A stretch of DNA of 63,807 nucleotides, filler included, from Reclinomonas americana ATCC 50394 (lineage: Eukaryota): assembly GCA_048213135.1 (NCBI GenBank). It is 11 parts of 11 records of this genome, joined end to end, with 100 filler letters (N's around TTAATTAATTAA, not from the genome) between each part and the next. Parts side by side here need not be neighbours in the genome. Positions count along the whole stretch, not along the records: positions 6,362 to 13,883 come from AFZH01022213.1; positions 13,984 to 16,727 come from AFZH01022214.1; positions 16,828 to 37,731 come from AFZH01022215.1; 8 more parts are not named here. One strand, written 5' to 3'. Positions 7,297-60,424 of this stretch are shown in pieces; the first letter of the stretch is position 1; the number at the start of each line of letters is the position of its first letter. The notes beneath the pieces are model-generated. The model was given only the letters and a program-made list of their open reading frames with translations, did not search any database and had not been told where the DNA came from. A program made the position numbers and the translations under genes.

Positions 7297-8672
7297 TCAC
7301 GTCGCCACATTCACGACCTTCACAACAGCGCTGGCAGTCGCAGTCGACAGCATGGCTGTGTGACTCAGTCCTGCGACGCAAAAAAACAGAATCAGTATCG
7401 AGTCATCGCCATCCATACCGCCGGCCACACCACGTACCGAGGAAGGCAAAGAAGGCGATCTTGAGCGGCTCGTTGATCAGGATGTCTGTAACACGACGCA
7501 CAGTGAGTCTGACTTGCGATGATGCGCACTCACACCCTCTTCGTCACACCTTGACCCTGTAGACAGAAAAACTGGCGTTCAGAACTCAACCAGACAGTGT
7601 GTGACAGACCAAAGCACTCACCACTGATTGTGTGCGGCCAACGGCGGCAGAGAGTACGCAGAGGAGATTATTCGTGAGCAAACACAGACGAAAGAATCAC
7701 AGTACGCACACACGCAAACACACCGCTGCCGTGCACATTGTTGTCAGTTAGCACGCGATCTCGCGCATTGCTCAAGCGACAGAAGGACACGTGCCCATAC
7801 CTGATTCCACATGCCGAGGCAATCAGACCGCCGTTGCCAGCCGCCTCCAAATCATTCAGCACCCTGTACAAGCGCGGAACGTGAATCCCACTGAACAATC
7901 GACATGGCCTACACAGGCGAAAGGAGACCGACCTCGACGCCGTGATTAGGGTCATGATGATGAGGAAGATGCCGGTGAGCCTAATTCGCAACACAGAATC
8001 AGCAATGTTGCCCCCAATTTTCCCCCAAGGACAGGGGGCAAGGAGTAAACGGTTTCCCTTTGCTTACTCCTCACTCACCATATGATCACGAACGTCCACG
8101 GTACCAACTCGAGAGGCAGATCATGATTCTGCGAAACGAGATCAAACTGGTGAGCAAGCGACACCAGCGCGCGACAAGCACACAAATACCTTCCAGCGCT
8201 TTGCGAAGCGACGCAGCGCCCCGTTCGTTGTTTCAACCTCGGCTATCGCTTCCGCAGTCTCTCGGCGATCTGTTCGGATGGGCACATGTTGGACGTAATG
8301 GAGACCGCAGACAGCAGCACAGCATCCAGACGCACCGCTTATCGATGAACTGCTTCCATTCGAAACAATGTTCTCCTCATCCCAGGCACAGCGAGTCCCT
8401 GCGAGCATCCAGTGGTTGGCGAAGAACAATCGACCGCACTCATGCACACGATACAAATCGTCGCGGCTCCAAAGAGTGAAAGGGACAGTCGCAGCGGTGG
8501 CAAACAGAGAGCCAAGAGAGCTCAAAGGAAGACAGAGTGAAAGAGACGAGAAGAAAGAGACACCAGGGGAGAAGGAGAGGAGGTGACATTCAAGAGGGAG
8601 AAAGAAATGGCTGCCTCCCACCAGTGTCCCTCGCTCTTCCTCGCCACCTCTCTTCCTTCCACACATGCCTCT

Positions 8673-8707
<35 letters not shown>

Positions 8708-11700: not shown

Positions 11701-14700
11701 CGACAGCAGGCGAGCGCGCGAATCCAGCAGGTCGTTACCGGGGCCATCGGCACTGGCACCCACCGTGGCGTATTGTGCAAGCCAAAGACGCTGGAACTCG
11801 TCGGCAGACATATCCGGTGCCAAGCTCTCCTTGCCCATCCCTGTTCTGTGCACCCACCCGAAGAACTCGCGTTGCAGCTCCGCCAGCGAGAAGCCAACGG
11901 GAACCTGATGGATCGATCAGTCATGAGACAGGTTTGGCAAGGGAGGGAAATTATAAGAACGGAGTGCTGGCGACTCGAGCGCCATTTGTTCACGGATACG
12001 AGGTAGCGAAAGCAGTGTCTGTGAGCAAGAATGACATCTAAAAGCACCACTCTGGCATACTCCGAGTCGAACACAAGAGCTGCGTCCTGCCCCAGTCTCC
12101 ACCACGAGCTCATTCTGCATCCAATAGCAACCCATCACGTGTGTGTAATCTACCCTTCGTTTCCCTCACTCCAGTAACAGTTAAGACCTCACTCTCGCAT
12201 CGGGTTTGTTTCCCTCTTCCAGCTACTCAATCCTCCATCTTCACCGCCTCACTTCGCCTTCTTTCCATTCCTCCTCTCCACTGAGCTTGTTCCTTCTCAC
12301 TCATCTCAGTTTCCTCTCATTCAACCTTGCCCTCGGTCCACCGTCGCCTTCTCCCGATTCTTCTCGCATTGCGTTCGTCCCTCTTCCATGGATCCACTTC
12401 ATCTGCACAGATACCTTCGAACTCGCGCCCCTCCTATCCTCCTCCCCCACATCAACAATCTGCTCATCTCTTGTCTCTCACTCTGACCTCACCATTTATC
12501 ACTGCCATCGTTTTTCCTTCCTTGTCGAGGCAGTCGCCAACCTCTTTCTCTCACTCCTCACGCATCAACTTCGGTCCTCCTTCGCCTGCTCAACTCTGTC
12601 TCCTCATCCATCTTCTCCTCCTTTCTCCGCCCCTCACATCAAGTTCGTTTCTTCATCACCTGCTCAACTGTCCTCTCACTCATTTCTTTCCCACCACTAT
12701 CTGCTCTCCTCTTTCTCCCCACTCGGTTCTTTCTATTTCTCTTTGCTCTCTTCCTTTTCCTTCTCTCACACCATCCTCGCCGATTCTCTTTATCCCCCCT
12801 CTCCTCCTATCCCTCCTCCCAGCATCGACGCAACTGCTCTCTGTCGGCCGTGGTGTGCGTAATGCAACAGCGCGCCAAAAATATCATTCTTTCGCAGTTG
12901 AGACACAGCAGTGAGCAAATGCGTGCTGGATTCGCCTCGCACTCTCAGTCGAGCAACGCGCGGAGGCAAGGGTGGTGGTGGTGGTGGCGGCAAAGGTGGC
13001 CGTTGCCCACGAGCAGACACCACAATGGCACGGTGACTCTGCGCGTATGCAGAAGCACAATCGCAGTTACATCGCGAACTTGATTGCAAACCACTTCCCA
13101 CTCCACACGAAAATCACCTTGTGAGCCGACTCTGCACACTCCAAGTCGCTTGCATCGTCGGCGGGCATGTCGATGGATGTCACCTCCACCCGCTTGCCGG
13201 TTGTTGTTTCGTGAGCAGAAGGCAACTGCATTACCATACGCGGCGTGCGCATGAATATCTGCGAGACAACCCACACCACCGGCGCCATGATCACGCCTGC
13301 AGACAAGCGTGAGGAACCACACAACAGTGGCACGGTGTACAGATCTGAGTAACACGATACCAGAGAAAATGCCAATAAGCATTTCGCGAAGGAAGGCAGA
13401 ACCACCGCCCGTGACGGTGGCTTGCTCGGCAAACACGGCGTTGGTGTACAGAGCCAGGCACATGGCAAACCACAGAACCTGAAGGAATTGTGGAGTGAGC
13501 AGGTTATCAAAGAATGGAAAGTGAAGAAAGAGACAGAGAGACGGTGTGAGTGTCCCCATAGTTCGGCTGAATTCAAGCCGCTTGCGGAGAGAAGATAGAG
13601 AGGGTGCTCAAGATTAAAGTAGCACACGATATCGATCAAAATATGGTACAGCACAGCGACAGTACGTGTGGCAGACTCTTTTCTCTCCTTCTAAGACGAC
13701 TGCGCGGCGTGCGTGAGTTCTCTGCGAAAGTTTGAAACACAGCCCCTCTTTCTCTCTCGCATTCTCCTCCTCATACTGTGCTCAGTGACTGCATACAGCG
13801 CGAAAGTCAACTGCAGAGTCCTGCAAGTCCACAATCTCCCTACCTCGAGCTCTCTGTCACCCTCTCTCTCCCTCTCATGCTGTNNNNNNNNNNNNNNNNN
13901 NNNNNNNNNNNNNNNNNNNNNNNNNNNTTAATTAATTAANNNNNNNNNNNNNNNNNNNNNNNNNNNNNNNNNNNNNNNNNNNNTTATCATGTCTCCTTGA
14001 CTCCTCTCTCTCTCTCTCTTACACCCTGCACACAGCCACTGTGCACTTTGCATCCCTTTCTTCTCGCCCCATCCCTCTCAGCACACGGTTACTACTGTGC
14101 TAAGCTTCTCCATCTCCCACTCTCCTTTCTCTTCTCCTATCTTAGTTTGACAACACAACTGTGCGCCTACAGGAAGTGCGTCAGCCGTGTCCCTTCCCCT
14201 CCCCCGTCCCGCCCTTCCCTCAAGCTCCCCCTTCCCTCCCTTCTCCCCCTTCCCCCCTTTCCTCCCTCCCACACCGTCACACGCTGCGTACGACGGAAGC
14301 GATCGGCATTCGGGCACATAATCGTCGACACCCACGAGTGGTCATCTGCACGCAGCCACCACGCTACTCAGAAGTGCACTGTTCGCACTAATCAAGCAGC
14401 ATGCACACACCTCTCACAGCCGTCCACACAGCCACAGCGCGTCTCATCAACCAACTGCGACAACGATTGACGCGTATCACCGAGTGCACGACCTCTGAAC
14501 ACATTCAAGTTAAAAACGAGCATAGAAACGCAAGAGACTTGCAAGAACAATGGCCACAAACGTCGGAATCGTGAAACAGCCACGAAATGCCTTTCAAGTG
14601 CCCGAAGTGAGTCTGTTCAAACGAACGACATGGGTGAGCAGCGCGATGCCGCAAGGGATTATGCGGTAGTCATACACACCTGCGTCTTCTGCCTGCAGAC

Positions 14701-17700
14701 CGCGGTCGCGCAGATCGGCGGTGGAGAACACACTATGCACAATCACACACGCGCACTTTCAGGATCAAATCAAAGAAATCGCCCGGCGCAATACGCACCC
14801 GGCGAACTTGACGCCAGCCAACTCTGCCTGTCGCAACGGCATTTTCAGCATGGTGACACATCGGACCAGCTGCCTGTCGCTCGCCTGGTCCATCTTGAAG
14901 CCGATGTACAGCTGGATGAGATAGATGACTTGAATCACTGGTGCGCGCAGGGTGGTGAGTGGGTGAGCAGGCTCGTGGTGACAGCGGGTCGGTGAGTGCT
15001 TACCAATGACAATCGAAAATGTCGAGCTCCTCAGCAGCTGGCCCGTGAAGAGTGACAGCAGGTCGGCAGGACTGAGAATCACCACGTTAGCTCACTTGCG
15101 ACTCAACAACACCGCCGAGTACAGACGCAACGAGACAAAGGTAAAGTGAATGTCGAAGATATCGTGCACTGGAGAGAAAGGGAGAGAACACATTGAGGCG
15201 ATTCAACACAGAGAGAATCACCCCTCTGCCCCAAGTGACGACGCACGATTCACGCTAAAATCCGTCATGTGATTACAACGACACACAAACGACTGCACGT
15301 CGTGAGTTCCGCGCGCCACTCGCACAAATCTGTCGCGTGAGCGCATTCGTCAGGGCAGAGCGCAAACGATGCGCCGTACGGCGTCGTAACGTTTTGCATC
15401 CGTCCGATATCCACTGCTGCCTGGTCTCGTTCCAGAACACACACAGCTTGCCGAAGTCGGCAGCAGTCGCTGTAGAAACAAACAAAGAACAGAAAGCGCC
15501 GTGAACAACCCTCGCCTTGCGCCAATGGCATCGTGTGCACGCACGATTGTCACTGCGGTACACGGTCCGGTTGCAATCTGTGCAGACACGTAAGCACATG
15601 CGCCTATTCGTCAGCACGTAATTGCAATGCAAAGCGCAACGACTGTCGTCCAGGGCCACCAGCGTCGTGTCGCCATCGTCATCTGCTTCAGGTAAGTGCA
15701 AGCCACGCACTCCACATCCAGCAATGTACTCCAACACATCTCGCTTAGACAGGAGGTGAGGCACGACACATTCACAGGCAGGTGGGCATACAAAAGAGAC
15801 GTACCAGCTGCGGCGCAACGGCGGCCAGGAGCGCGCTATCTTGACGAGCAATCTCGAATGTGAACGATTCACCCGCAGTGGCATTCAGAGCGATGGGTAC
15901 TCCGTTTGCTGCTTGCAGAAACACTCGCTGGACAGGACCCAGGAACACGGTAGTGGAGTTGCGACTGTCCGCGTAGGGCAGCAGATCTGCGGCAGCCATG
16001 TAAAAAGCGATAAGAAAGCAAACCACGGCAGGCACGACATCAGGTGACCAACCATTGGCGATAAGCGTCGAGGTGATGATCGGGTAGACACCCTGCAGTC
16101 GCTCCGTAACGCTCAATGGGAACTGGTACTGCGTGACCAGGGAGGAGGCAACGGCATCCGTCGGGGGCACGGTGAAGGTGGAGCTGTTGGAGAACTGTGT
16201 GCGCAACATAAACAGTTCTTTTGTAAGGAGTTTCCGAGAGACATGAGCAGGCTGCCCGGGCAGCACAGACCTGGATGCCGGGCGCCGTCGCCAAGGGCGA
16301 AAGGTACGCAGACACCAGCTGTACGTTGGTGCCAATGATGGCAATTGCAGGATCGCCGGCGGTCTTGGTGTTGACAGCATGAAATCCGACAGTAGACAGC
16401 GCCGAGATACCATTACTCGCCATCTGTCCGTCCAGCACTGTGCCCCGCGTGGCTCCAAACACCGTATCCACCGTCGACACCAGCAGCTGCACAGTGAGCC
16501 AGGGATTGAGCACAAGTATCTGCTCACAACCTTCATAAAGACTTCCCCGACCATGCCCCCCTTTGTGCACTTCGAGTCCCCTCTTCATTCTCCGCTCTCT
16601 CCGCCGAGAGATTCGCCACCGAGATGCAACAAGAAACAAGTGAGAGGCTTATCTGCTCCTCTCATTCATCCTTCTCCTTATCCTCTCATTCTCTCCCCCG
16701 CCGCCAAAATGCAGCAATCGGTCATAGNNNNNNNNNNNNNNNNNNNNNNNNNNNNNNNNNNNNNNNNNNNNTTAATTAATTAANNNNNNNNNNNNNNNNN
16801 NNNNNNNNNNNNNNNNNNNNNNNNNNNATTCCTCTCACCTGCACCGAGGACACTGGAAGATAGCTGCCAATCGTGGCCATGTGCACAGCTGTTTGCATCA
16901 GGGAACTCGCGGTTGTTGCAACGGCGGCAGAGTCACCGCTCTTGGCCATATCACGCAGTGAGCTGACACGCGAATGCGCTAGTGAGTAAACGGGTGAAGG
17001 CACGCTGCAAAAGGTGGAGACGACAGCACCTGGCCAGATCTCCAGCCACAAACAACATGGTGGTGGTGGTCTCGGGAGAGAGTGACAAGTCGATTTTCGC
17101 AGCGGTCGCCGACAACAACATGGAGGCGTCACGAACGGCTGCTCGGTTGGAAGCAACTGCATCGTCGAAAGGGCCTTCACGTGTGAGAATCAAATGATGC
17201 CCCACATGTAATAGGATGTCTCACCGTCGAGCAGCGCAGACTGGTCACCCACAGTCAGTGCCGATACGCCGGCACTCAGCGAGCCCATGGCATCCGCCAC
17301 CTCACTGTCTGTAAAGTCGGTAAGGTCAAGCTGCTGCGCTCGGTCAAAGCTGCCGCGGAGAAATGCTCCATTGCTCGCGGTTGTGGACGGTGTGGTCGAC
17401 TCGAGAACCACAATCGTGGAGTAGACATCAACAGACGCGCCATATACATCGCGCACCGTGACGCCGGCGTGCAGCTGATTGCCGGTGGAGGCGCTTCCAG
17501 CCAGCGGGAAGATAACGCCCCTGATAACAGAAATCGTACTGGCCGTGATAAAGACCTGTGGACGAGAAAGGGGAAGGGAGGTCAGCGTGAAAAGAAGTGC
17601 GGCATTCTGGGGACACATCGGTTCTTTTCGAGACCAACCTTGGTGCCAAGCGACGGGTGCACGTAGAACGGAAGGTAGGACACTGGACGCGTGCGCACAC

Positions 17701-20700
17701 ACAAGCAGGTGAGAGACAGTTCCATTCGATGAGCACGAGAACAGCAGGCGACGCACGAGGTTGATCCTTGTCCACAAAGTCGGTCATTGTGAAAACAAAG
17801 GCAGTGATGCGAGCCACACCACTCAGTGGTGTGATATCGAGAGTGCCGGCAGTCGGCAAATCATTGATGTCGAGTGTAATGGAAGGAATAACTGGGGCGA
17901 GGCACGTCGTAAGGCACATCTATCACAGCACGGGTACAACCCTGCATGCAAGACACGGGCGTACCTGGAGTGCTCAGCGCGGGCAGTGCCAACAACTCAA
18001 ACACATACTTCTTGTTGCCCTCAAAGACGCCCTCTTTGATGCGCACAGCGGGCGGCTGTCCAGGAGCCGATGGAAGAAAATCGAAATCGGGCAAACCGAG
18101 CACTAGATCCTGCGTCGACCCTGCATTGCACACACAGATGCGAGTTCAGTAGCAAGACTTTGCACACGTCTCGCTGCATCGCAGACACCTTGCTCATACG
18201 CTCGCCACGAGAAGCTGGTGTCTGTGGGAGTGCCGAATGCAGTGGCGGTGATTGAAATAGAGCGCAGCGGGTTCAGCCGTGCAGTTGAAGCGCCGACAGC
18301 CAAGGGCGACGCCGAGACCTGTGCACGCAACACCATGATGAATAACAACGCCACCTCGTACCCAAGCAACAGAACGTCGACAAACCACTCTGAATGCGAC
18401 AGATTCTCCTCCTTGGACTGTCACATCTGCGGTAGCGTGCCGGTTGCGAGTTCCACGAGTCACTGTGCACCCGAACGAGTAGCTGCAGTGAAGAGACGTG
18501 AGAAGCCCATTTCCCTCCTTGCGAGGCACTCTGAGTGATACTGCCACGCAACATGCCCGGTGTGCTGAAGCCAGCAGCAATGGTCAGCACTGCAGATCGC
18601 TCCGGCGAAACGACGGATGCCCCACAGGGTGTGCCCCCAAACGAGCATGTCCACGTGAACACCACCGGCACGTCTCGTACCAGCGACCGAGTCCGGTCAA
18701 CATCCACCAGTGTGGCCTGCACAGTCACTGGTCCACCGACACCAACCACCGGCCCCATGGCGGTCAACGACAGCTCCAAGTCATGGAACTCTGTGCGATA
18801 TAGGCGGCGAAACATAACACAAAATGAGTGTGACACGATAACACGCGCGAGACGGCAGAACAGAGCACGCAACGAGTGACAATAGTTTCCGCTGCAGGCG
18901 TCAAGTCTCCCGAGTTCGCGTCCGTGACGACAAACACATAGAGATTGGAGTAGCCGGTGGCCGCCTCGAGGCCGGCGAGAGTGCACAGCACCGGAGTCGT
19001 CGAGGTCCTGTTGAACGTCAACCAGTGTGAGTGAAATGGATGACGAAGAGAGCGGGCAACACACACGGAAATTCACCACAAGCAGGGCGATGTCGTGGGA
19101 TGCCAGTCGATGAGACGCGTTCGCCCGCTTGATGCGCGCTTCTGAATGACTTGAAAACGTGGATTCGGACTGATCAGAGGCAGTCAGTGCGCCAGTAAGG
19201 AATATTGTCAGTGCAGTGACAGGAGGAGGCTCACCCTTCTGCCGCATTTGGTGGGCCGTTGGCTTGCACAAACCTGCACATTACGAGCAAAACTTTCACA
19301 AGGGAACGAGAAATTCGTAGAAACCCGGTTTCTCTGTCGCCCTCAGTGTCCCTCTCAACGCAACACTGGAGCCGTCGTATAAGTCGGGTTGCCGGCATTC
19401 CGCATCGCTGCCGTGTGCACGAGGAGAGTTTTCCCTGCACAGCCCGCATCAGCACGCTGCGATTCGAATAGAAGATGGAAGCACGCATGCACACGCACCC
19501 AAGACCACCTGCTGACGCCCAAAGTCGTTGTCATTGGCCAGCGACACACTCAGCGTGTAGTTCGTGTTCGGCTGCAGCCCGGTGGCCGTACACACCACGG
19601 TGTCGGTGTACGTCGTCGGCCACGGGCACGGATTCGGCACAGTCGACAGCCAGAGCACTCCGTTGACGAATACCTGCACTCGTTCGCCAGAGGTGCGCTC
19701 GTGCCATGTTGAAGATGATGACGATTGCACACTGCGTGCCAGTGTCGAGAATGTGCGCCGCATGACAAGCGTCACATTTTCTGGGTGTCGCAACAAGTCC
19801 ATAACGGTCAGCTGGTCTGGGATACTCGTTTCTGCAGTTTGGGGCGACGCATTCGCACAACCAGTGAGCGTAGTGACGCAAAGTGGGGAAACCACTTCTC
19901 TTCAGTGAGACTGACCAGTACCCAGCGAGTAGCTGCTTGCCCGGTGAAATGCTCCCTCGGACGGCGCAGCAGCGTAGTCGACACAGAGAGCGTACCAGGA
20001 TTTGAATCGATTCAAGCGGAATCCGCTCAGTACAACTTCGTGAGTTGTATCCACAGAGGTGGTACTCTGCTGTGCAGTCGCCAAATCGACTGTCAGCGTG
20101 CCATTGCGTGTCGGACCCAACAATGGCGCCACGCAGGACGTCGCCCATGGCATGCTGACATCGTCGACGGGTTCCAGTCGCAACGCCCGCAGTGAGGTCC
20201 GCGGCTCCAGTCCCAGACCGCGAAGAGTGAGTCGCGCGGCGGGATCATTTGCAGGAAGAACGAGTGGGTATATCGTCTCCACACGTGCTGTAATCAGGCA
20301 GAAGTGCACAAGTGAGACACTTGCCAGTTTCATAAAGAGGGGCTTGCATAACAGACCAACAAAAATGTACACAGCCTCCTTGACATTGAAAAAGGCGCCA
20401 TTTGGGTCGGCTGCGGCGGCGTCGAAACACAGCGAGTATAGGCCGGCTTGCAGTCCACTAGCCACGGTGATGAGCATGCGAGTGTCGCCATTCGTCGACT
20501 GCAGCGACACCGTGTCCGAGCTGTCAATGGTCAACGAGCCGCTGGCAACGCTGGCCGTCGGCAGGATCGTACACACCGTGGCCTCACGCTCAAAACGGAC
20601 GCGGCGCAGCAGCAACTGCGGCTGCAGAGCGACGCCGCTGACGGTAAAGATGGAGTTTGGCACATTCTCGAGAACCGTCACCGGTGTGAAGGAGACCACC

Positions 20701-23700: not shown

Positions 23701-26700
23701 GGGGACATGTTACTGAGCAATTAATGTGCACGTGCATCACTGCTTGCGGCATACAACGGACATAGAACGCAACATCGACAACGTACAAATTTCCAGTGAT
23801 CGGATCAAGGGCAACAGCTGTCGGGGATATAAACAGGGCATTGGTCCCAGAGCCGTCCACGAAGCCAGCTGGAAGGTAGCCGATGAGGATAGCGACAAAC
23901 GTGGTCGTGTCAATCCGGAAGATTCCTGGGAATTCTTCGTCGCATACATACAGGAAACTACGCTGCTTGTCCAGTACAACTTGACGCACGGCTGCTGATG
24001 GCGTCACGGTGGACGTAATTGCTGGAGTTGTAATGGTTCCGCTATCGATGTTGACGCGTCTACAAGACTCGTGTGTCAGCCGAGGTGATTAGCGAAAACA
24101 ATTGCAGTCATGTGGACCGAACCGAAGCGGGCCTGAGTGCGATACATAGGCCACACGAGATGCGAAGTCTACCGCGATACCCTGCGGATTAGAAAACTGG
24201 CCGCTGGCCAGCGTGGAAACTTGTCCGCCAGCCAGCTTTCGCACAATGTGGTTGTTCTACAGCAAGAGTGCTTGAGCACACTGTGAATCAGTGCAATCCT
24301 GAGCTAAGTGAGCAAGTAACTGTGTCTACAATGTACACCTCCGTTCCAAGAGGATCCACCGCCACCGCATTCGGGCTGTGAGAGAAAACGGTAAGCATCT
24401 TTCTTTGCTCACCACTGCAATCGCCTGAAAGCAAGGATACTGACCCATTGAACAAGGCAGATGCCGCCGGTCCATTTTGTAGCCCTGAAGAGTTGTACAC
24501 TCCGGCGATTGTTGACACGACGGCTCCGGGACTGATCTTTCTGATTGTCTGGGCGCTAATGTGATATACGTAAGTGAGATAGTACAGTCTACAAGTGATG
24601 TACGCTGTGTTTTTTGGGCACTCACAATTTATCCGGGATGAAGACGTTGCCAACGTCATCGGCGGCGCCAGCCTGTCAGTCGAGTAACGACATAAGTCAA
24701 TCCCTGCTCAATAAAGGTGGAGAACAGGAGAACACAACGGCAGGCGAGTAAAATCTTGCCACTGGTCCCACGCCGTCGACGGAGCCGGAGAGACCAGGAG
24801 ACCCAGCAAGCGTGGCCACCACTGGCAGCGTACTGAACGGCGAAGTCGACAGCTCAAACCTCGGAGTCACGCCACTGGATTGCACCCTGCCAACAAGAGT
24901 GGCACTGGCGATAGTGATGTCCCCAACAGATAGCGTGCTCACAATCCCCGAGGCTATGATGTGAGAGAAGACTTGTTTTGAGATAGAAATACACAGACAG
25001 GACGGGGTGGCCATTGTGCGCAACTGACAGGCTGGAGTGGCGAGCGAGTTGAAAAGTCAACAATCAAGCCTTGTGCTGATACGGTGCTGGTGGCACGGAA
25101 GAAGTACGTCGCAGATGGAAACAACGACTCGGTAAGCGATGCGATACGAGTCGCAACAGAGCTGCTGGGCGGCATGGCACTCTGTCGCCAGGAGGGGAAG
25201 GCAAGAAGGCGGATAGTGTGATTGCTCGAATCTGCCAGAAGGGGGAGCGTGTGAGAATAAACGCTAGACCATGCAAAGCGTCGACACCAACGAGCAGCAC
25301 CTGCCACAAATAGGCCCCCTCGAATCCAGGCCACACCATTCTGTGAGCAGGGTACCCTGGTCAACACTTCTGCGGGACAGCCCCCGGCAAGACATTGGTC
25401 ATGCATACCGGCAAGTTGAGTCGGGAATTGCTCAGGTAGCCATCGGCAGTGCCTGGTACAGTAGCCAAGCCAGCCAAGGTGTTGACTTGCGCTTTAATGG
25501 GGTCGATCTGTCGAATGGCGGAATTGTTTGTCTGATACAGCACACTATTGAGTCTATCGGCTCTATTGCAGTGCACGGCTCAAGCAGGGACGCAACATCT
25601 GCAACGTAAACCAGACCATCAAGGCTGACGGTGACACCTGCCGGACTTTTGAATCGCGCCACACTGGTCGCCACTCCATCCGCAGAACCGGCGCTACCAG
25701 GGGACCCAGCCAACGTGGAAACAGATTCGGTGGCCAGATCAATTTTCCGAATGGTGTGGTTGCCAGTGTCCGCCACATACAGCACCGTGTCGGCACTCGC
25801 CAGCGCCACTGCGCTTGGCGTATTGAACCGTACACCGGAGCCAGTGCCATTTGTGCTACCAGTATAACCGGACACGCCAGCAACAACTTGCGTAGCTCCG
25901 GCTAGTGTCACAGACCTGAGAAGTGCAGCATGGTGACGACATAGTTCCACGGCGAGAGGGTGCACGAGTCCATGTGAACAGATACGTACAGAATAGTGTG
26001 GTGGCCACTGTCGGCCACGTACACCAGCTGGCTCGCCGTGATGGCCAATCCGCGAGGTGCAGACAAATTTAGATTCGTGGTCATGGTATCCACTGTCGTG
26101 CCACTGACGCGCCGCACATTGGTGTTACCGTCCTGGAGACGTGCCATGTGAGACGATGATGATACGCATAGTGACGGAGCAAGGCATCAAACCTCCACGA
26201 CAAAAATGTCGCCGGTGACTTGGTGCACGGCAACGCCTGTGGGACTGTTTGTGTCGCACACATCAGGTCACAAGAGTGGGGAAACTAGAAATGCACCCGA
26301 CGAAGAAGCTCGGGATACCTCGAGAACATGGCTGACGACACGGATCCATCCTCGGCTCCGGGCTGACCAGTACCGGCAATCGTCGACACCAGGCCACTCA
26401 CGCTCATTCGCCGAATCTTGTGGTTGCTGCACGACGAATGAGCGGAGGCAGCGAACCGGCGACAAGCGGAATCGATGCGACGCAACTTTCGATCCGCAAC
26501 GACCATCGAGCCAGTCGACGCATCCGCTGTAGTGCCCTGCAAATCTCTGGTGATCAGCAAGCGGAAGCCACATGACGGCTGCCCCGATCGCTTCATGCTC
26601 ACCCATGGAGTGGAGAACGCAGCGCTAGCTCCCTGTCCATCTGCGGCTCCGGAGACGCTCGGTGCGCCAGCCACCGTCGACAGTAGCGTAACACCGGATG

Positions 26701-29700
26701 CAAATGTGGACGACGACAGGGAGACATCGAAAGCGCCTGTCATCTGGACACCGGTGCCGTTCGGGTCGATGACACCATTGAGGATCGCTGTTGTGGTGGT
26801 GACGACAGTGGCCACATTGGTGGTGACCAAGGGGGCTATACAACCGGCGTGATGAGGAGGCGGAACATACCATTGAACTCACAGACGCACTCACCGGGCA
26901 CCGGAATGAATGCTTGAGAGGTGAATTGCACGGTAGACCCGACGCGATTGCTGACCGTGTCGACGGCTCGGTACACATATGTTGTCAGCGGCAGAAGAGA
27001 GGAGACTGTCGCAGAAAAGCTCGTTGGTGTGCTTGCAGTGAGAGGACTTGCTGTAATCGTCAATGGCGGCAACACAGCCAGTCGCAGGGAGCCATTGGCA
27101 GAGTCTGGCACGGCAGTCGTACATCAGACAGCAGTCAATACGGAGGACAGCAAGAAATGACTCACCCGTGATCACCAGGCCGTGTGCAAATGCAGCCAAC
27201 CCGCGCTGTGCCTTGGCGTGAGCTGCTGGTGTGCGCCAAACACTGACGATTTTCTGACACTCACCACAGTGTTCAGCCGCGATCCGTTGCCTGCTCCGTC
27301 AACAAAACCCGCCGTGTCGACGACGCCGAGAAGCGTGGACACTCTACTCACAGACAGCTGGACCACTCGCACAGCATTTCCCTGCACCGCCACAAATGCA
27401 ACACATTAGCAATCACTCCGATCTCGACATACCCACAACCAGGCACGCAGCGCAACGTCAGCAACATACAGCGTGTTTCCATCTGTACCGGTAGCAATGT
27501 GCGCCGGCAACTGGAACAGTGCGGAGGTAAGTGTCCCGTCGAGAGCCCCGGACACGCCAACGATGCCGGCGACAAGTGAGACGGTGGCGGTGCTCAAGGC
27601 AATCTTGCGAATGACCCGATTGCTGAGATCAGCCACGTAGAGAGTGTTGCCATCTGGGGCCAGCGACACCGCCGAAGGAGAATTGAAACGCGCACTCGCG
27701 CCGACTCCATTCGCGGAGCCACTAACGCCGGAAGCCCCAGCGACAATCGTCACTGGCCCAGCAAATGCGAGGCGACTGCGAAGCAAAGCGGCTGTGAGAA
27801 GCGAAAATCACAAGGCTGTCATCTGGCTGCAACACGTCCAACCGAATAGTGTGGTCGAGAGCATCCGCCACGTACACACACTCGTGTGCGAAAGACCCGT
27901 CAACGGCGATGCCCTGTGGCAACCTGAAGTCGCTACTAACGGTGGATACTTGGCCATCCGCAATCTTGCGCAGCGAATGGCTACCCTCCTGCGACCACGG
28001 ACAATGGATGAGAACATCACATCACCTCTGGGCTAACCTGGTGCAGCAGCGCACAGACTCACTTCAGCGACATACACCTCGCGATTCTGACTGTCAAATC
28101 CAACCCCCGTTGGGCTGTAAATAGTGATGAGAAGGCAATCATCGACGTGTGTGCGCATGAAGCCAGTCATCATCCACGCACCGTGAGAAACGTGCTGTTT
28201 CCGCCGGACCATCGACGCTGCCAACAGCCCCAGTACCCGCCAGCAAAGTGAGCGTACCGGAGAGCGTCACTGCCCGCACCACGTGAGCTCTGTTGCGCGT
28301 GACAAGGAATCAGTGGATGACTGTGAGGATGCGCGGATAAGCGTGACGCACTGATAGTCGGTTACGAAGAACGTTGCGCTGCTTGCATCCAATGCCACGC
28401 CCTAATTTCTCATCGAAATATGGAAAGGGATGTTAAAACGCACACTATCAGGTAACAAGCATCCTCACTGCGTGAGCCCGACGCACCCATGGACTTGGGA
28501 ATGCCCCGGTGCTGGAGGCAATCAAGGTGGACAGGACAGGCACTGTGCTGCCAAAGGCGGCGGACAAGAGAGCAAAATGGAAAGCATTGCTGGTGCCGCC
28601 CGTGTCAACTGTCGCATTCAGCACAGCGCTGGTGGAGGTGATTGACGACGCGGCCAGCGTGCTCACAACAGGTGCTGCGAGACAAGGACATGAGTATCAA
28701 CTTTTTAACGGCGTACAAATTGCCAGACATGCTCACGAACACGCTCACAAACCCGGCTTTGTGGTCAGCTGGCTTGACTGGGGACGAGCCGACAAATCGG
28801 AGAGACTGACAAGCCGATACACGTAGGTCGTCGACGGCAACAACTGCTGCACGGTCACAAAAGCCGAATAGCTGGTGACACCACTGCTACTGGAAGGGCT
28901 GATAGCGGTCACGTCGGGTGGGATGGTGACAAGCCGTATGCGTGAAGATCCACCGTCTGTTTTACAACGAACACGATGAGTTCAACACCTTTCACCATGA
29001 ACGAGGAGATCATCAACACAAAAACGCACCAGAAACGAACAGAGTGCCATGCACGGCTGACATTATGCCTGGTGCACTGAATCTGGCATTAACGCCGTAA
29101 CCGTCGACGACAGCGCTGGCTGTGGATGCTGTCCCTGCAACAACTAGTAACTGACTGCCGGAGAGATATCGGATGCAATTGTTGCCCGTCTGCAAGTCGC
29201 AACCTTCAGTATGGGGGTAGCAAGAGAGAGACAGAGACCATATGAGACGCAACATCAGCCACGAAGATAGTCAGTGCATCTGGGTAAACAGCGACGCCGG
29301 AAGGGTTGTTCAAGAGTGTGCCAGAGGCGCCAGACATGCCTGGCAGTCCAGCAACGAGAGAGACGACGAATGTGCTCAGGTCCACCGCGCGGATCACGTG
29401 GTTGCCACTATCGGCCACCAACAGCCGCTTTGCCGTTGAATCCAGCGCGATGCCCGTTGGTTGGTTAAATGAGGCCGCGGTGGCAACACCATTTGCGTAT
29501 CCGCTGCTCCCTCGAGTACCAGCCAGCACGCTTACGAGCCCACTGGCGGAGATGCGACTGTGACACAAAGACGATGAGACGGGTGGTACAGCAAGCGTGG
29601 CGCCCCACAGGGCGGAAAACGCACAAGATAACGTGCAGCGCAGCATCGGCTACATAGAACTCGCCACCGGCAAACTCGGCGACTGCCACTCCTCGAGGAG

Positions 29701-32700
29701 CCTGAAAGTCAGTCGTCACTGTGGAAACTTGACTCGCCGACAGACGACGAAGGCTGTGGTTGCCATCCTACAAATATCACAACATCAATGACTACATGCG
29801 CACAGGCGCCAAGAACATGGCTTCGAACTGGCACACCTCGGTAACAAGAATGTCGCCATTGCGTCTATCGACAACTACACCAAACGGTCTGCGATATGCA
29901 TGGTCATATATGCAGATTGTCAATCTCATCACGTTCTGCGGCATACGCACCGTGAGAAACTGGCCGCAGCATATGGACCGTCTGACGAGCCCGGGACACC
30001 AAGAGTGCCGGCCAGTGTGCTCACGCTGCCATCCGTACCCACTGATCGGATCACATGGTTGCTGCACAAAGGAAAGAAAGGTGAGTCCGACTCGCCAATG
30101 GACCAATGCAAAACACGCGCAGGTGGTACGAGCGTACTTTGTATCGCACACGACAATGCGACCGGAGGTCCAGTCTACAGCCACTCCCTTTTGTAATTGC
30201 CGATTACAATGCAAGTAAGGTCGCGAGTCTAACCACAATAGACAACGTTGAACAACTGACCATGGGCGACGACAACGACAAGCTACTGTCCACTGCCGAC
30301 GGCCCGGCTAGTGTGGACACTGTAGCCGCACCACTGCCGAAAAGATCGGCTGACGTGGCCAGCTCGAACTTGAATAAAATGGTCAAATTGCCGGCGAGCG
30401 TGGCAGCGCCTGGCAACGTAGCCGAATTCGCACCTACACTGGTGGCGGAATTGGTGGACAGCGAAGTCACTGAGATGAGCACACGTGCACGAGGTGAGCA
30501 GCCAGCAGGGTTCCAAAGTCATGAATGTTTGTTTTGCCCCACCGAGATTCGTGATAGCAGAGGCCGTAGGCGACCGAAAATGCGAGTTCAGGTCCACCAC
30601 GCGATATGCGTATGACAAGCCCGAAACCAGCGCGACGCCGCTAGCCATCAGAGTGATCGACGCGGATCCAGTCGCAGTGGCAGGCGAAGTGACAAATGAG
30701 GTCGGCGGCAGCGTGATGATTCGGATGGCACTGTCGCCAGTGGTTGTATCGTTCGTCGTCAGTGTCACAGTAGAGCCCTCGACGACTACGCCGTGCTGCA
30801 GAATGGGGAAAATGGCGCAAAATGAGACTTCGTTGACTTTCTGGAAAATGCACGACAGGTCGTACCGGTGTTGGGAATGACGCGGAGGTAAGTAGTCCAT
30901 CATTGGAGGTGGACCAAGCTGGTGAACCTGCAAGTGTACTCACGGTGCCGGATGCCGCAATCACCCGCACCGTGTGGTTGCCGGCCTCGTGCGACGGAAA
31001 ACGACGTAAATCTTTCGCTTGTTGGCAACTATCTCCAGCACACCAAACAATTCACCTCCACAACAAATAGAGAGCCAGAGAGATGCTCGAATGCCACTCC
31101 TATCGGATCGCGGAAGAAGGCACCACCCGGAGCACCATCTGTATATCCGGGCAACGACGACTGACCGGCCACTGTTGTGACTGCCATGGTGGCCAGCACG
31201 ATCTTGCGCACGACGTGATTGCCGGTGTCGGCGACGTAGAGCACTTTCTGATTCGAGTCCAGGGCGAGGCCGATCGGTGAGCGAAATGAGGCGCCGGTGC
31301 TTACGGCGTCTGTGTTGCCCGGAACACCGACCGAACCGGCGATGGTGGCCACCAGTCCTCGGAAAGACACACGACTGACAAAAACAAACAACAGGAGCAG
31401 CAGCGATCAGCGTGTGTTAATTCACGCCAAGAGAGACCTGCATGCGCGAACGCCAGCAGCTCACCGCACGGTATGCAACGAGTCAGTGACAAACAGGCAT
31501 TCACGATCGGCGAGCGAATCCACAGCAATGCCTCGTGGCTGCGTGAATCGCGCGTCGTTGCGAATGCCGTCAACGTGACCGGCTGTGCCGACAATAGAGC
31601 CCGCCAGGGTCGAAAGCACACCAGCGGATAGCTTGCGAATGGCATTGTTGCCACTCTGTGCCCAGGGTTGAGAGGCGCGCATGCGTGGCATGCAGACGAG
31701 ACAACTGCTACATACATCAACAATAAAAACGTCTCCAGTTCCCCGGTCGATCCCAACAGAAGTCGGACTGGGTGGGAGACTCAAAGTCAGCCGTGTCACT
31801 AAAACGTTGCTTCGCATGCACTGAGTGAATCACAGACCTGGATAAGAGAGCACTGGTCGGCGCGCCTTCGACAAAGCCGGCAATGCCAATCTGACCGACG
31901 AGAATCGTCTGGACTCCGACGGCCGACACGGAACGAACAACGTGATCTCTGAGAGGCGAACATAGAGGCCAGTGAGATGAAAGCAAAACAATGCACACAC
32001 GAAAAAACTTATGCACTTATGCGTGAAAAGTGCGTGCAAATCAACTCGCAAATCACCTCGCATCAGCCATAAGGACGTAACCGCTGCCGTCCACAGTCAA
32101 GCCCTGCACCGAGTACCGAGAGGTTGACTGACACACATAATCTCAACACCAGTCGAGATGAAGCTACCACCAACCATAAAGCCGACTACTGCAGCGGGAT
32201 CCGACGAAGTTGGCAGAGCTCGCGTGACAGTCTTCAAGGTCGATACCAGCGGAGCATCGCCAAATGCATCTAGCGACCTTGCCACCTGCACGGTGCCCTG
32301 AACAGAGGACCCGTTTTGAGGGGTTACGCGCGCAGTGAAGGCAGCGGCCGTTAGCGCGCGAGTCAGCGAGTTTGACGACAGCGAGACCGTGGGTGTGGTC
32401 CAGGTGGGTGCTGACGGAGCAAGTTGCAGTGAGAGAGTGAGTTCAAGCGAATACTACTTTTCACAGCACAAAAAATACCTGCGGTGGTGGTGATGGAAAC
32501 CACGGTGCCGGAGAGTACGGGTGTGGATGCTGCCGCACGCACAAAGTATGTCGTCGCCGGCATCAACTGCGAAACCGTCGCGGAAAATGTCACCAGCTGC
32601 GAATCGCCTGCTGCTGTGGACGGAGAGGCAGCGACCATGGTTGCCGGCAGCGCGACTTGCCGAAGTATCACATTTCCCGTGTCTGACGCAGCAGTTAGTC

Positions 32701-35700
32701 AGTCTCTCTGACGATCAAACGAGGCATGACAGAGACGGGCAAACGCGCCAGCGACAAGCAGCCGTCCACGCTTCAAGTCAAAAGCAAGCCCACGCTGGCA
32801 AGAGTTGGAGTACATGATGAGTGACTGAATGAGGGAAGGTAGCGGAAGAACAGCATCGCGCACACACCGGAGACGACAGCCGTGAATCGCTGGCGGATCC
32901 GTCTGCCAACCCACTTGTACCAGGTAAGCCGGCGACTACATCAAGTGATCCATCCACCAACGACAGGCGTCGAACAACATGATTTGGCGTCTGATACCGA
33001 ACACAGTGAGTAATACCGTCGTTGCGATGAGATTGGAAGCCTCACTCCTCGCAGGTCGCAACATCCGCAATGAACAGCATCTGGCCAGCAACATCGAGAG
33101 CAACCGTCGCCACGGCGGACAGCACAGCTGTGGTCGACGGCAGTGTCGACACTGTCAGCGTCGCAAGGTCGACAAGGCGGATGGTGTGATTGCCCGCATC
33201 GGCGACATAAAGAAGGCCGCGATCGGGATCAACAGCCACATCTGCGGGCGAGCTGAACCTGGCCGAGCGTGCGACAGCATCGATGAAGCCCTGCTGACCC
33301 GGGGAGCCAACAAGCGTGGCGGTGATGCCTCCATACGAGACTCGCCTGTACGCGCACACAAGAATGGGCAAGAGAGATAGGGGAAAGTGAGAGAGAGAGG
33401 GAGAGGGAGACACACAGAGAGAAAGAGGTAGAGGGAAAGGGAGGAGAGACGCAGACAGAACGGAGGGAGGAGAGACACAGAGAGAAAGGAGGGAGGGAGA
33501 GAGAGAGAGGTGGAGAGAGAGACACACACATACAGACAGGCAGACAAGTGCACGCACATGCACGCACACACATACACATACACGCTATCTCTCTCTTCAA
33601 CGCAAGCAAGTTGCAATCGTGTTGCAACATAAAGTACTCACCGAATAGTGTGATTCAGCGTGTCGGCCACGTAAACACACTCGTGATTCGTATTGGGATC
33701 CACGGCAAGACCCTGCGGTCCACCAAACTGCGCGGCAACAGTGGTCCCGCGTGGTCGGTCAGCAGTACCTTGGCTGCCGTTACCGGCCAGCGTGGACACA
33801 GTGGTGCCGACGATCGAGCGAATGGCATGGTTGGATTCCTGAGCACGTGCGCAGTGAGAGGAGGTTGTGCAGCGGGGCAGCGCAATCGCACGCAACTTCG
33901 GAGACGTAGATGACTTGCGTGTACGGGTCAACGAATACATCAGTAAGGCTGAGGAAAGAGGGTCAACAAATACCGTTGACGTGAATGAGCACGGAAAAAG
34001 GAAACTCACTGCGAAAAGCGCGCACTGCTGGTGCCGTTGGCAAAGCCCGGCGTTCCGACAGCGCCAGTCAAGACACTCACGGTGCCAGTGGCAGTCACTT
34101 TGCGAATGACATGCGTGCTACATTCCGATAAGAGGAAGGGTAAGTTGCGACGGAAACTCGGCCGACCCGAAAGAATCATACGCACTCATACTCTGCGACA
34201 AACACGTTGCCGGTGGCGTCCACCGCAACACCCTGCATGCAAACAACGCGGCCGAGCGTGAGCAATCTCACATCAACACGAGGCGGTGCCTGTGTCCCAC
34301 AAAAGCACACACCCGCGGGGAGGAGAACGTGCCCTGCAGGGTGGAGACCGCAATCGCTCCGTCGATGGCACTGGACACACCGGAGATTTGGAAACTGAGA
34401 CCGCTCACCGCGGTGCCGGCACTCGAGAGGACAGAGCCCTGCAGCGTGATGGTGGTGCTCGTCGTCGCAGAGGGAGCGAGGGTGGTGATGGTGATGCCGG
34501 AAGGATCACCTACAACACACTGTGAGAAATCCAGCAAAGAATCTCTCCCTGTCTTTGCCAACGAAACTTTGCGTGTGCACGACTGGTCGGCGACTCGAGC
34601 ATGGCACCGACAGCAGCACCACCTTCTCGACGGAGAGCGGCAGACCCGACAACATCGTCATCATCGGCCAAGCGCGCTTCGCATGCACATTGCCACTGGC
34701 ATCTTGATCGTGATGGCCGGTGTCGCTGCCGTCATCCATCTCCGTCGCACGAACACGCACGTGCTGCAAACACGACATGTCGTACTCGTCCACTCCCACT
34801 GCTGCTGAGGCGGCGGGTGGCGGCGGGGGCGTCGGCGTCCACCACAACTCGCAACCATTGGCGATGCGTAGGGAGGCAGTCGGCACCTCGGCGACAAGTG
34901 AAAACGAGTGTCGTTGGTGGCGATTGATGTCGACAGTGCGGAGTGTGCCAAGGAGGACACCCGCGAGTCCGTGTGAGGAGGGAGGAGGAGGGAGGAGAGG
35001 GGGTGAAGTTGTTGTCGGGAGGAAGTCAATATCCGATGGCGCGACATTGGCTGTGGCGGTGCATGCGGTGAGAAGAGGATGAGGAGAGAGAGGTGGAGTG
35101 AGAGAGATAGAGGGAGAGAGAGAGATCTAGATCTAGAGAGACAATGCGTAATTGCAAACCTTCGGCGATCAAGAACGAGGCCTGGATGCGAGTGCGCTCC
35201 ATCCGAGGACCGGCCAGTGGCACCGCAGACTCACGGACGTCGTTGCTGTTATTGTTGTCGACTGGCAGCATTCTCACGGCACAGCTCACAGCGACCATCA
35301 ACGGAGACCCCAGCACTCCACTCTCGCCCATGACGAGCTCATGGCCGTGAACGCCCGTGCGCACGGCGAAAAGGTGCGAATCCCTGCCGCCGCCCTCGTT
35401 GTCATCCACGGTGGCACAGTCGTCGATGACCAACGCGAGCAAAACAGACCCCACATGATCTGCGTCCGCTCGAAGCTCTCCAATCACTTCACCGCGTGTT
35501 GATGGTGGTGTGTATGCAGGCGATGTGGGTATTAGCAGGAGGCGGGCTGTGCGAGAGCGAGCATCAGAACAACATTGCACAGCACAATTGATTTATGCAT
35601 GACGGTGGTGTCGAGGGTGCGACGCGGCACCGTCAAACAGTATGCGCGAGGATGGTGCGCATGCAGCAGATGCAGGAGGCTCGAGAAACGGAGAGGAAGA

Positions 35701-35865
35701 AACGTAGATGAACCGAACACGCACAATGACAAATACACGCTAGCGCTGCTGGCACGTACTAGAACACATCTCACCTTTGCGCTGTTCAAGCAGTGGTTCC
35801 GAGGCAACACATAGTGTGCACAAGCAGCATGCCACCACGAGCACCAGCAAGAGCGCAGTGCGCAT
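7297..35865 (-). CDS. Giant multi-exon polycystin-1/REJ-like adhesion receptor: SP - 6x(split FN3-like with nested NHL propeller) - EGF - Ig/IPT-like repeats - FN3 - REJ - GAIN/GPS - ~5 TM
   Basis: Signal peptide MRTALLLVLVVACCLCTLCVA (ATG 35865); many NHL repeats (LYVADTGNHTIRKIDL..VSTLAG); REJ-like INDLPTAGTLDITPLSGVARITAFVFTMTDFVDKD (~17760-17870); GPS CVFWNETRQQWISDGC..CRCNHMTDF (~15250-15445); TM1 VIYLIQLYIGFKMD; PKD1-like DDHSWVSTIMCPNADRFRRTQRVT|VLWFAMCLALYTNAVF; TM3 LIGIFSG..APVVWVVSQIF; TM5 DILINEPLKIAFFAFL; TGA at 7297-7299. Spans two spacers. Linkage of exons at 8000-13100 and 34500-35865 is inferred. Confidence 0.75.
8610..9790. repeat. Pyrimidine-rich low-complexity tract with internal duplications (probably intronic in the receptor gene)
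   Basis: C/T-dominated; 'tctctccgctctcccttgcctctcctcaccacctctctt' at ~8917 and ~9409; 'cttccacacttgcctc' repeated. Confidence 0.85.
12200..12830. repeat. Pyrimidine-rich low-complexity tract (probably intronic)
   Basis: C/T-rich; ORFs here are S/L/P/F-biased artefacts. Confidence 0.75.
15250..15445 (-). other. GPS autoproteolysis motif (H-M/T) of the receptor
   Basis: Spliced across intron 15330-15390: LCVFWNETRQQWISDGCKT|FVRVARGTHDVQSFVCRCNHMTDFSV, matching the C-x2-W..W-x3-GC..CxCxHL(T/S)xF consensus. Confidence 0.9.
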
Positions 35866-36289: not shown

Positions 36290-36370
36290 CTCCCGTCTCT
36301 CCCGACAGCCTGCACGTGATAAGTGGCAGTGATGATTGCACGTTGCGTGTGTGTGGCTCGCCAGTGGGGA
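36290..36370 (+). pseudogene. Isolated degenerate WD40 repeat of the same family
   Basis: VSPDSLHVISGSDDCTLRV followed by frameshifted 'tggctcgccagtggg' (WLASG). Confidence 0.6.
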
Positions 36371-36454
36371 TATCGATGACATATGTACATGTGACAGTGG
36401 AAGGGGCTCACGGTCTTCAAAACCACACCTGTGTCAGCAGAGTCACATTGATCC

Positions 36455-36696
36455 TGATGTGTGGGGTGGCTGGCTGCATCTCAGCGAGGGATGGAGGACG
36501 TCTCAGAGAGAGGCGGGAGCGGGAAACGATGACGATCCAGAGCGAGCAATTCACACGCACACACGATACAAAGAGAACAGACTCTTCGTGACCACCACAG
36601 GAGAGTACCGACCAGGTGTTGCTCTCCGAAGAGAGAAAGTCAACAGAAGCGAGCCTATCAAGAGAGAGGGTAGGGCACAAGAGTCCTCTTTCTCCA
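36455..36696 (+). promoter_or_regulatory. Conserved proximal upstream segment of WD40 family genes (putative promoter/5'UTR)
   Basis: Matches 3910-4149 ('gcgagggatgga..gagcgagcaa..ctccgaagagagaa(g)aagtcaacagaagcga.cctatcaagagag') and partly 925-1030. Confidence 0.6.
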
Positions 36697-50401: not shown

Positions 50402-50501
50402 NNNNNNNNNNNNNNNNNNNNNNNNNNNNNNNNNNNNNNNNNNNNTTAATTAATTAANNNNNNNNNNNNNNNNNNNNNNNNNNNNNNNNNNNNNNNNNNN
50501 N

Positions 50502-54604: not shown

Positions 54605-54745
54605 TGTGCGCGTGTGTGTGTATGTAAAGAGCCTTGCTGTCAGAGACACAACAAGTGAGGGTGAGAAGCGCTAGCTCGGAATATTGCGTGTCCCGTCCGC
54701 AGGCCTTATCGTCCGCTCACTCACTCTCTCACTCACACACACACA

Positions 54746-60061: not shown

Positions 60062-60424
60062 NNNNNNNNNNNNNNNNNNNNNNNNNNNNNNNNNNNNNNN
60101 NNNNNTTAATTAATTAANNNNNNNNNNNNNNNNNNNNNNNNNNNNNNNNNNNNNNNNNNNNTGCGAGCGGCAGACACGGGTCAGAGAGAGACTTCCTGGC
60201 ATGCAATTGCGCATGCAATCTCTCGCGCGCGCTGCAGCTGCGCGCGCGCTGCGAGCTCATGCTCTTGATCACGATCATGGTCAACTGCAAGCGCGCGCAG
60301 CGACGACGATCACTGCGTGTGGCTGTGCAAACCGAGTCGCCAATACAGCAGACGAGATGATCAAGCGGGACGCACATGGATCGCGGAAATTTCGGCGCTG
60401 TCAATCTTCCGTCGCACACACACA

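Follow-up and report, generated by a model that had tools for sequence, protein, structure and literature searches.

A large minus-strand gene of Reclinomonas americana probably encodes a REJ- and GPS-containing membrane receptor with an NHL-rich ectodomain

The receptor gene

The window analyzed here is the whole stretch of 63,807 nucleotides (nt) of DNA from Reclinomonas americana ATCC 50394 (assembly GCA_048213135.1), and its minus strand carries a receptor gene that is spread over three contigs (16828-37731, 13984-16727, and 6362-13883). It largely holds that this gene is real and that it extends from 35865 to at least 13235, and probably to 7297. The reading favored here is that of a single minus-strand gene, which opens with the ATG at 35865, closes with a stop at 7297, and encodes a membrane protein of the REJ/GAIN kind with about 5,000 residues that would enter the secretory pathway, and a probability of approximately 0.62 is given to it. 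Such a gene would have roughly 90-100 exons, separated by GT-AG introns of about 65 nt and by a small number of long GA-rich ones, of which two contain the scaffold gaps. A preliminary description of this DNA had proposed that colinear minus-strand exons form one very large gene that is interrupted by short introns and gaps in the assembly, and this is borne out by the colinear domain matches, the stop-free exon chain, and the controls of the exon-chaining program. The receptor is best not classed as a polycystin-1 orthologue, given that REJ and GPS are present and that neither PLAT nor the 11-helix channel half was found.

REJ domain and GPS motif

Pfam scans were run on raw stop-to-stop open reading frames (ORFs) and on single exons rather than on spliced products, and covered 137 minus-strand ORFs of at least 62 amino acids (aa) between 9500 and 36500. 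A partial REJ domain (PF02010) was found at 17226-17889 on two consecutive exons (all receptor exons are on the minus strand), which match profile positions 305-346 and 374-420 of 452. Exon 17758-17889 scores 33.6 bits against a cut-off of 25, and exon 17226-17555 adds 12.4 bits that are colinear in the profile (raw ORF, 30.0 bits). The REJ domain of the preliminary description is therefore retained as a partial domain that spans positions 305-420.

The REJ exons are followed by approximately 400 residues that lead to the GPS and are presumed to be a GAIN domain (15545-17154). A GAIN domain is described in PMC3321182 as a fold of approximately 320 residues, in which a helical subdomain A and a beta subdomain B enclose the GPS. 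The region found here is split over six or more exons and holds the scaffold gap 16728-16827 in an intron. In a search of the ESM Atlas with a GAIN-region exon, the best score was 0.89, to unnamed clusters, and one cluster with GPS in 12% of its members scored 0.83, which is a weak lead.

The GPS motif (PF01825; 15248-15467) is divided between exons 15393-15467 and 15248-15328, each of which lies above the cut-off of 22.5 (23.2 and 22.6 bits, respectively). With a slash marking the cut, the pattern reads CxxW...W....C...CxCxHM/TxF, the first exon contributing C-x2-W...W-x4-C and the second C-x-C-x-H-M/T-x-F. All four cysteines stand in the canonical spacing and are followed by His-Met/Thr, with methionine replacing leucine at position -1, and the predicted cut falls between Met (15266-15268) and Thr (15263-15265). 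The GPS of the preliminary description is confirmed as canonical by the scores of both exon halves, the four cysteines, and the H-M/T site. According to PMC3321182, a GPS of this kind has a cut site of the type His-Leu/Thr or His-Leu/Ser. In the cleavage described there, two disulphides hold the turn, the histidine acts as a base, and the threonine attacks the carbonyl of the preceding residue. The intact catalytic residues, together with the location of the GPS directly before the first transmembrane helix (TM1), make self-cleavage of the receptor at this site a plausible prediction. TM1 starts 40 residues after the predicted cleavage site, in agreement with the earlier proposal that REJ and then GPS come directly ahead of the first membrane helix. 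No paralogue of the GAIN-to-TM part was detected elsewhere in the window.

Exon-intron structure

The introns of the gene typically measure about 55-75 nt, with GTGAGT, GTGCGT, or GTAYGT donors and YAG acceptors. Exons were linked by a purpose-written exon-chaining program, with a codon table trained on ORFs of the receptor locus. When the start is fixed at 35865, the chain gives an unbroken frame of approximately 4,260 residues in about 77 exons up to the end of the first contig. The score on the real strand is 586 (13,151 coding nt, one gene), whereas the opposite strand reaches 25 and three local shuffles reach 94-124. The chained model is a draft, in which the signal peptide is cut, the EGF module is dropped in some runs, and at least one 150-nt in-frame intron is read through. 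A hand-curated chain of ten exons between 17004 and 14680 contains no stops and has GT/AG at all junctions, and the exon chain is likewise stop-free, with GT/AG at every junction, from 17004 to 13235. From 14679 to 14345 the choice of exons is ambiguous, with 1,217 stop-free paths.

The frame is maintained across both scaffold gaps. For the first gap (16728-16827), the donor at 16838 is joined to the acceptor before 16486, from phase 0 to phase 0. The coding sequence of contig 1 ends with ...PVSSVQ/GTGAGAGG in phase 0 (the slash marking here the splice junction), and contig 2 begins with GA-rich non-coding DNA, followed by CAG/CTGCTGGTG in phase 0 at 16486. The second placeholder (13884-13983) lies within the intron 13479-14274 and is flanked by CT/GA microsatellites. 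The last exon of contig 2, the juxtamembrane exon 14275-14345, ends with ...RFRRTQRVT/GTGTGG in phase 0, with a GT donor at 14274, while contig 3 provides the acceptor TTCAG/GTTCTGTGG in phase 0 at 13478, after which the exon opens with VLWFAMCL. The join RFRRTQRVT/VLWFAMCL that had been proposed across this gap is thus supported by a GT and a CAG that are both in phase 0.

The exon chain also bears on the possibility that the locus contains two or more genes, namely one for a secreted NHL/FN3/Ig-like adhesin and a separate one for a REJ-GPS membrane receptor. Flexible exon chaining can bridge true gene boundaries, the single-gene model is derived from genomic sequence alone, and the segment 19499-19007 is the least well modeled part. 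Nonetheless, this segment, which is the longest poorly modeled stretch of the ectodomain, contains further plausible small exons and is not intergenic, and the exonless gaps between 34519 and 16839 never exceed about 300 nt. No second signal peptide was seen, the ectodomain has no credible membrane helix (a strong hydrophobic hit falls in a likely intron), and the program retained a single gene even though stopping and restarting was charged at just 8 score units. For these reasons, separate genes are considered improbable.

Signal peptide and ectodomain

The single gene starts with exon 1 (35775-35865), where the ATG at 35863-35865 opens a hydrophobic stretch that resembles a signal peptide, as previously described, and a GTGAGA donor follows after 35775. 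Between 34519 and 23087, approximately six modules of FN3-like beta-sandwich(es) plus an NHL beta-propeller succeed one another with a period of about 1.85 kb. NHL (PF01436) passes its cut-off of 20 in 8 of the 137 ORFs, with 21.0-40.7 bits and all within 25435-33584, and the teneurin-type family TEN_NHL reaches 30.8 bits versus a cut-off of 27.1. The draft model contains 16 strict NHL blade motifs and 18 PxG[IV]A[VL] motifs, and the counts of the two motifs suggest that the number of propeller modules is about six. That NHL modules dominate the ectodomain, as had been claimed, is in line with the eight ORFs above the Pfam cut-off and with the 16 blade motifs. A GAF match of 22.2 bits (cut-off 22.4) in ORF 30964-31416, which overlaps an NHL exon in another frame, was rejected as a chance match.

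FN3-like motifs recur every 1.85 kb or so, with the NHL blades in between. The fn3 family gives 19.1 and 17.0 bits on ORFs, and Pur_ac_phosph_N gives 17.3-21.2 bits in four ORFs, below its cut-off of 30. The FN3 modules of the preliminary description are therefore reflected in FN3-type matches, but at 17.0-19.1 bits these are below the fn3 cut-off of 25. The situation is similar for the EGF module, where a match is seen at 22995-23069 (E 7e-4) but falls marginally under the cut-off, with 20.2 versus 21.5 bits.

Seven tandem repeats of approximately 110 residues occupy 19998-22907, as seen by alignment, and their identity to the first copy is 22-32%. They have no Pfam match, and a search of the PDB with a sequence profile gave nothing below E 0.17. 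The AlphaFold2 (AF2) model of one repeat is all-beta, with nine strands and a predicted local distance difference test (pLDDT) value of 63.9. Foldseek with this model returned no matches at E <= 0.001, and the best rows were Ig-V ectodomains with template-modeling scores (TM-scores) of 0.32-0.53. The modeled fold fits a beta-sandwich and no more, and the term "Ig-like" fits the data without being established. Of the Ig-like repeats previously described, the seven repeats are real and a family match is absent. These repeats are followed by an FN3-like exon at 19500-19829 (fn3, 17.7 bits versus a cut-off of 25), and this exon by the small exons of 19499-19007.

A hydropathy scan of the ectodomain model showed no credible membrane helix. 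At 18321-18470 (minus strand) there is a 150-nt intron candidate that is in frame, free of stops, and strongly hydrophobic, and it would mimic an ectodomain membrane helix if it were read through.

Membrane part and C-terminus

TM1 (14897-15019) is split by the intron 14938-15003, and in the spliced model a 19-residue stretch of it reaches a hydropathy of 2.21. It is separated from TM2 by a loop of about 110 residues without PLAT. TM2 (13428-13478) and TM3 (13361-13382 plus 13262-13296) are encoded by two exons at 13235-13478, with hydropathies of 1.79 and 2.20, respectively. The acceptor before TM2 reads CAG/GTTCTG, and the loop between these two helices has 15 residues. In total, the hydropathy analysis gives three clear helices and at most five, if the exons of 8146-7297 are included, in an arrangement of hydrophobic segments that is 1 + 2 (+ 2). 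Of the "PKD1-type" membrane motifs in the preliminary description, it is the helices that hydropathy supports, and their PKD1 type is presumed.

The full polycystin-1 architecture and the eleven helices, which the preliminary description cited for animal PKD1, are not what is found here. PLAT (PF01477), PKD_channel (PF08016), and the polycystin domain (PF20519) have no match in minus-strand ORFs of at least 30 aa between 6362 and 16727, and no 7tm family match was found in the minus-strand ORFs scanned. The DNA between the end of TM1 at 14897 and the start of the next modeled exon at 14612 is gap-free and shorter than 300 nt, which leaves no room for a PLAT domain of approximately 115 aa. The proposal that the gene is a complete 11-helix polycystin-1 orthologue, with PLAT and the channel half hidden in the gaps or misassembled elsewhere, draws on the facts that the two gaps within the gene are placeholders of 100 nt irrespective of their true size and that this draft scaffold contains 10 gaps in 64 kb. 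However, PLAT is expected right after TM1, according to PMC1934368, and it is there that the DNA is gap-free and too short. Furthermore, the gap 13884-13983 comes only after the juxtamembrane exon, the frame stops at 7297 with WD40 genes on the opposite strand beyond it, and no window ORF scanned has a PLAT or PKD_channel match. A complete orthologue is therefore very improbable, even more so than a division into separate genes.

The end of the single gene is less clear than its beginning. The stretch 8640-12850 is poorly resolved by coding score and without Pfam matches, with GA-rich blocks at approximately 12150-12850 and 8640-9850 and weakly coding exons such as 11600-11845. Beyond it, a candidate TM4 is found at 7933-8146 (exons 8079-8146 and 7933-7980), with a hydropathy of 2.55, a GTGAGT donor, and a 98-nt intron. 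After a loop of about 13 residues follow a candidate TM5 and the C-terminus at 7297-7863 (exons 7801-7863, 7710-7725, possibly 7550-7556, 7438-7485, and 7297-7370), which end at the stop TGA 7297-7299. The exons of 8146-7297 have strong splice sites with GT/AG at each junction, the introns are mostly short (64-153 nt), and a CTAAC branch-like site is present ahead of one acceptor in 7297-7863. The assignment of these exons to a TM4-TM5 hairpin of the same receptor gene is moderately favored.

The gene could instead end soon after TM3 with three helices, in which case the exons of 12100-7297 would form a separate small gene or be non-coding. In-frame stops can be reached at about 13070 by read-through or at about 12795 after one more splice, and approximately 750 nt of GA-rich low complexity follow. 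In addition, the models downstream vary with the intron penalty, the best downstream exon (11600-11845) has an in-frame methionine ahead of it, and none of the downstream exons has a family match that would link it to the receptor. On the other hand, a long GA-rich intron is already needed once in this gene (14274-13479), the downstream exons are on the same strand, have good splice sites, and encode a two-segment hydrophobic hairpin, and no other domain-bearing gene was detected from 13235 to the WD40 genes. An early end is rather unlikely on this balance, and the single gene that ends at 7297 is preferred.

Several observations weigh against this reading of the gene. The codon model comes from the same locus, which makes the exon-chaining control partly circular, and the exon-intron model has the genomic basis already mentioned, a look-up of RNA runs for 14000-16700 having returned none. 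The TM3 donor, GTATCG at 13360, is weak, the hydropathy of TM5 is just 1.55, and a doubtful micro-exon of 7 nt is needed in the TM5 region. The model is unstable between 13235 and 8146, where it changes with the intron penalty, and the earlier stops can be reached in frame. The similarity of the juxtamembrane exon to polycystin-1 is a presumed one. Finally, no relative was found for any exon tried, so that the model has no outside support, and the alignment to the viral comparator described below is significant over the GPS only, with 4 of 300 shuffles reaching the score for the GPS and 187 of 300 for TM4-5.

Searches for relatives

The word-based protein searches span proteins of up to 2,000 aa, and multi-thousand-residue relatives are outside this range. 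The GAIN-region exon 15805-16194 has no real relative among longer proteins or among 1.84 billion representatives. Its sole match, the bacterial protein P0003 with SpaA repeats, owes its score to 12 repeats and was dismissed as spurious. No relative was obtained for the 221-aa repeat exon or for the profile of the seven repeats. Among PDB sequences, no relevant match was obtained for any of six short exons or ORFs, and searches with five single exons of the membrane region (20-47 aa) retrieved no PKD1 chain. The window has no look-alike stretch in common with the other windows scanned. In the literature searched, no papers that combine NHL with REJ or GAIN terms were found, and PMC12716839 contains neither REJ, NHL, nor polycystin.

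A degenerate search for the GPS pattern gave at least 118 loci, and in 1 of the 118 listed the motif was part of a long ORF and was followed by a helix. A viral comparator, P0004 (1,070 aa), is encoded at locus L066, 168-3380 on the plus strand of a giant-virus contig of 421,670 bp, and a search for related loci that started from it recovered just the same locus. P0004 starts with a signal peptide and a head of the C-type lectin kind, which matches PDB lectins at E of about 1e-4, and also has a Ser/Thr-rich stalk and a GPS-like motif of 19.3 bits. Its hydropathy profile shows four scored segments and a further one, read by eye, before the last, and no channel domain is present. The fold model of its C-terminal part has a pLDDT of 37.1.

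Comparison with known receptors

In PMC1934368, proteins of the PKD1 family are described as having REJ, GPS, often PLAT, and 1-11 helices, with PLAT coming right after TM1. Among the sea-urchin proteins SpREJ1-10, the same text gives PLAT in 5 of 10 and notes that partial REJ domains occur. The receptor shares with such SpREJ proteins a REJ domain and a GPS directly before TM1, a small number of helices, the absence of PLAT, and a partial REJ domain. The ectodomains are different, given that those of SpREJ contain C-type lectin domains and PKD repeats, whereas that of the receptor has NHL, FN3-like, and Ig-like modules in a protein of about 5,000 residues. By the criteria of PMC1934368, the receptor is best filed with those sea-urchin REJ proteins that have few helices and no PLAT, which are closer to it than PKD1 is.

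With PKD1/PC1, PKD1L1-3, and PKDREJ, the receptor has in common REJ, GAIN/GPS with intact GPS catalytic residues, TM1, a cytoplasmic loop, and a TM2-TM3 hairpin. It differs from the PKD1/PC1 kind in the absence of PLAT, PKD_channel, the TOP domain, LRR, C-lectin, and PKD repeats, and in having 3-5 helices versus 11. Its giant modular adhesive ectodomain and a GPS that precedes the first helix by a few tens of residues are also features of adhesion G-protein-coupled receptors (GPCRs). However, these receptors of the GAIN-7TM type have seven helices of the secretin type beyond the GPS, whereas the one described here has 3-5 hydrophobic segments and no 7TM match. GAIN domains of protists are already known from Tetrahymena and Dictyostelium, according to PMC3321182.

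P0004 resembles the receptor in the succession of GPS, TM1, a PLAT-less loop (about 80 residues in the virus), and a TM2-TM3 loop of 15 residues. Its head, a C-type lectin on a Ser/Thr stalk, is unlike the NHL-rich ectodomain of the receptor.

Possible mechanism and significance

In the mechanism proposed, the region from REJ to GPS would fold as a GAIN domain, and the chain would be cut between methionine and threonine, in the way that adhesion GPCRs and PKD1 are cleaved (PMC3321182). The cleaved NHL-rich ectodomain would then be held non-covalently on a small multi-pass membrane stub, in which a long cytoplasmic loop after TM3 would be followed by the TM4-TM5 hairpin and a short tail, giving five helices. 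Such a protein may function in adhesion or in the sensing of force, with the stub giving a signal once the NHL-rich ectodomain is pulled or shed. A pore position as in polycystin-1 would not be possible, because the six-helix channel-like half is absent.

It is tentatively suggested, and with less confidence than the single gene itself, that the receptor represents a free-standing "front half" of polycystin-1, comprising REJ, GAIN/GPS, and a bundle of five helices and lacking PLAT and the channel, that is fused to an unusually large extracellular array of NHL propellers in a poorly sampled lineage. If so, the front module of polycystin-1 would be an ancient self-cleaving receptor in its own right, and its union with a TRPP-type channel would have come later. 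The signaling of this module could then be studied free of the channel in protists and in the giant viruses with similar genes. What polycystin-1 does outside its channel part is still under debate, and so is signaling by GPS cleavage and the tethered stalk. A protein with REJ, GPS, and the first helices and without PLAT and the channel half amounts to a natural deletion experiment. NHL propellers are known from teneurins and from many bacterial proteins, and the predicted domain order suggests that they may also form the principal surface for ligand binding in a REJ/GAIN receptor. Automatic annotation will split or miss a gene of at least 90 small exons that crosses two gaps, and therefore counts of such receptors in protists are probably too low.

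The locus and its neighbors

The GC content of the window is approximately 56%. Its ten spacers (6262-6361, 13884-13983, 16728-16827, 37732-37831, 40859-40958, 42306-42405, 47879-47978, 50402-50501, 57863-57962, and 60062-60161) are identical, each consisting of N44-TTAATTAATTAA-N44, a six-frame stop linker. They are read as gap placeholders in a draft scaffold, each with 100 nt whatever the true size of the gap. Most of them are bordered by GT, GA, CT, or GAC microsatellites, which suggests that the scaffold gaps fall in simple repeats.

WD40-repeat ORFs are present on the plus strand at 1178-1999, 4126-5282, and 36336-37730, with PF00400 scores of up to 245 bits and very regular repeats. The gene at 36336-37730 begins about 470 nt upstream of the receptor ATG, on the opposite strand, and the WD40 genes at 36336-37730 and 1178-5282 thus bound the receptor locus on both sides. 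In the DNA, the WD40 ORF 36336-37730 has a tandem period of 126 nt. A tandem repeat with a 125-bp unit (3.2 copies, 88% matches) is found at 6750-7154, directly 3' of the predicted stop of the receptor.

No Rfam family was found in the window. A ubiquitin carboxyl-terminal hydrolase (UCH/USP) gene extends over two or more ORFs at 54665-56995 on the plus strand, and two ORFs at 45168-45933 on the minus strand match the neurochondrin family (26.4 and 31.4 bits, cut-off 22). A cysteine-rich ORF at 38125-38892 (minus strand) has a Stig1-like match of 24.8 bits versus a cut-off of 24.1, and the gap flank at 60062 reads like an EGF-type cysteine motif, so that other secreted cysteine-rich proteins may be encoded near these two positions.

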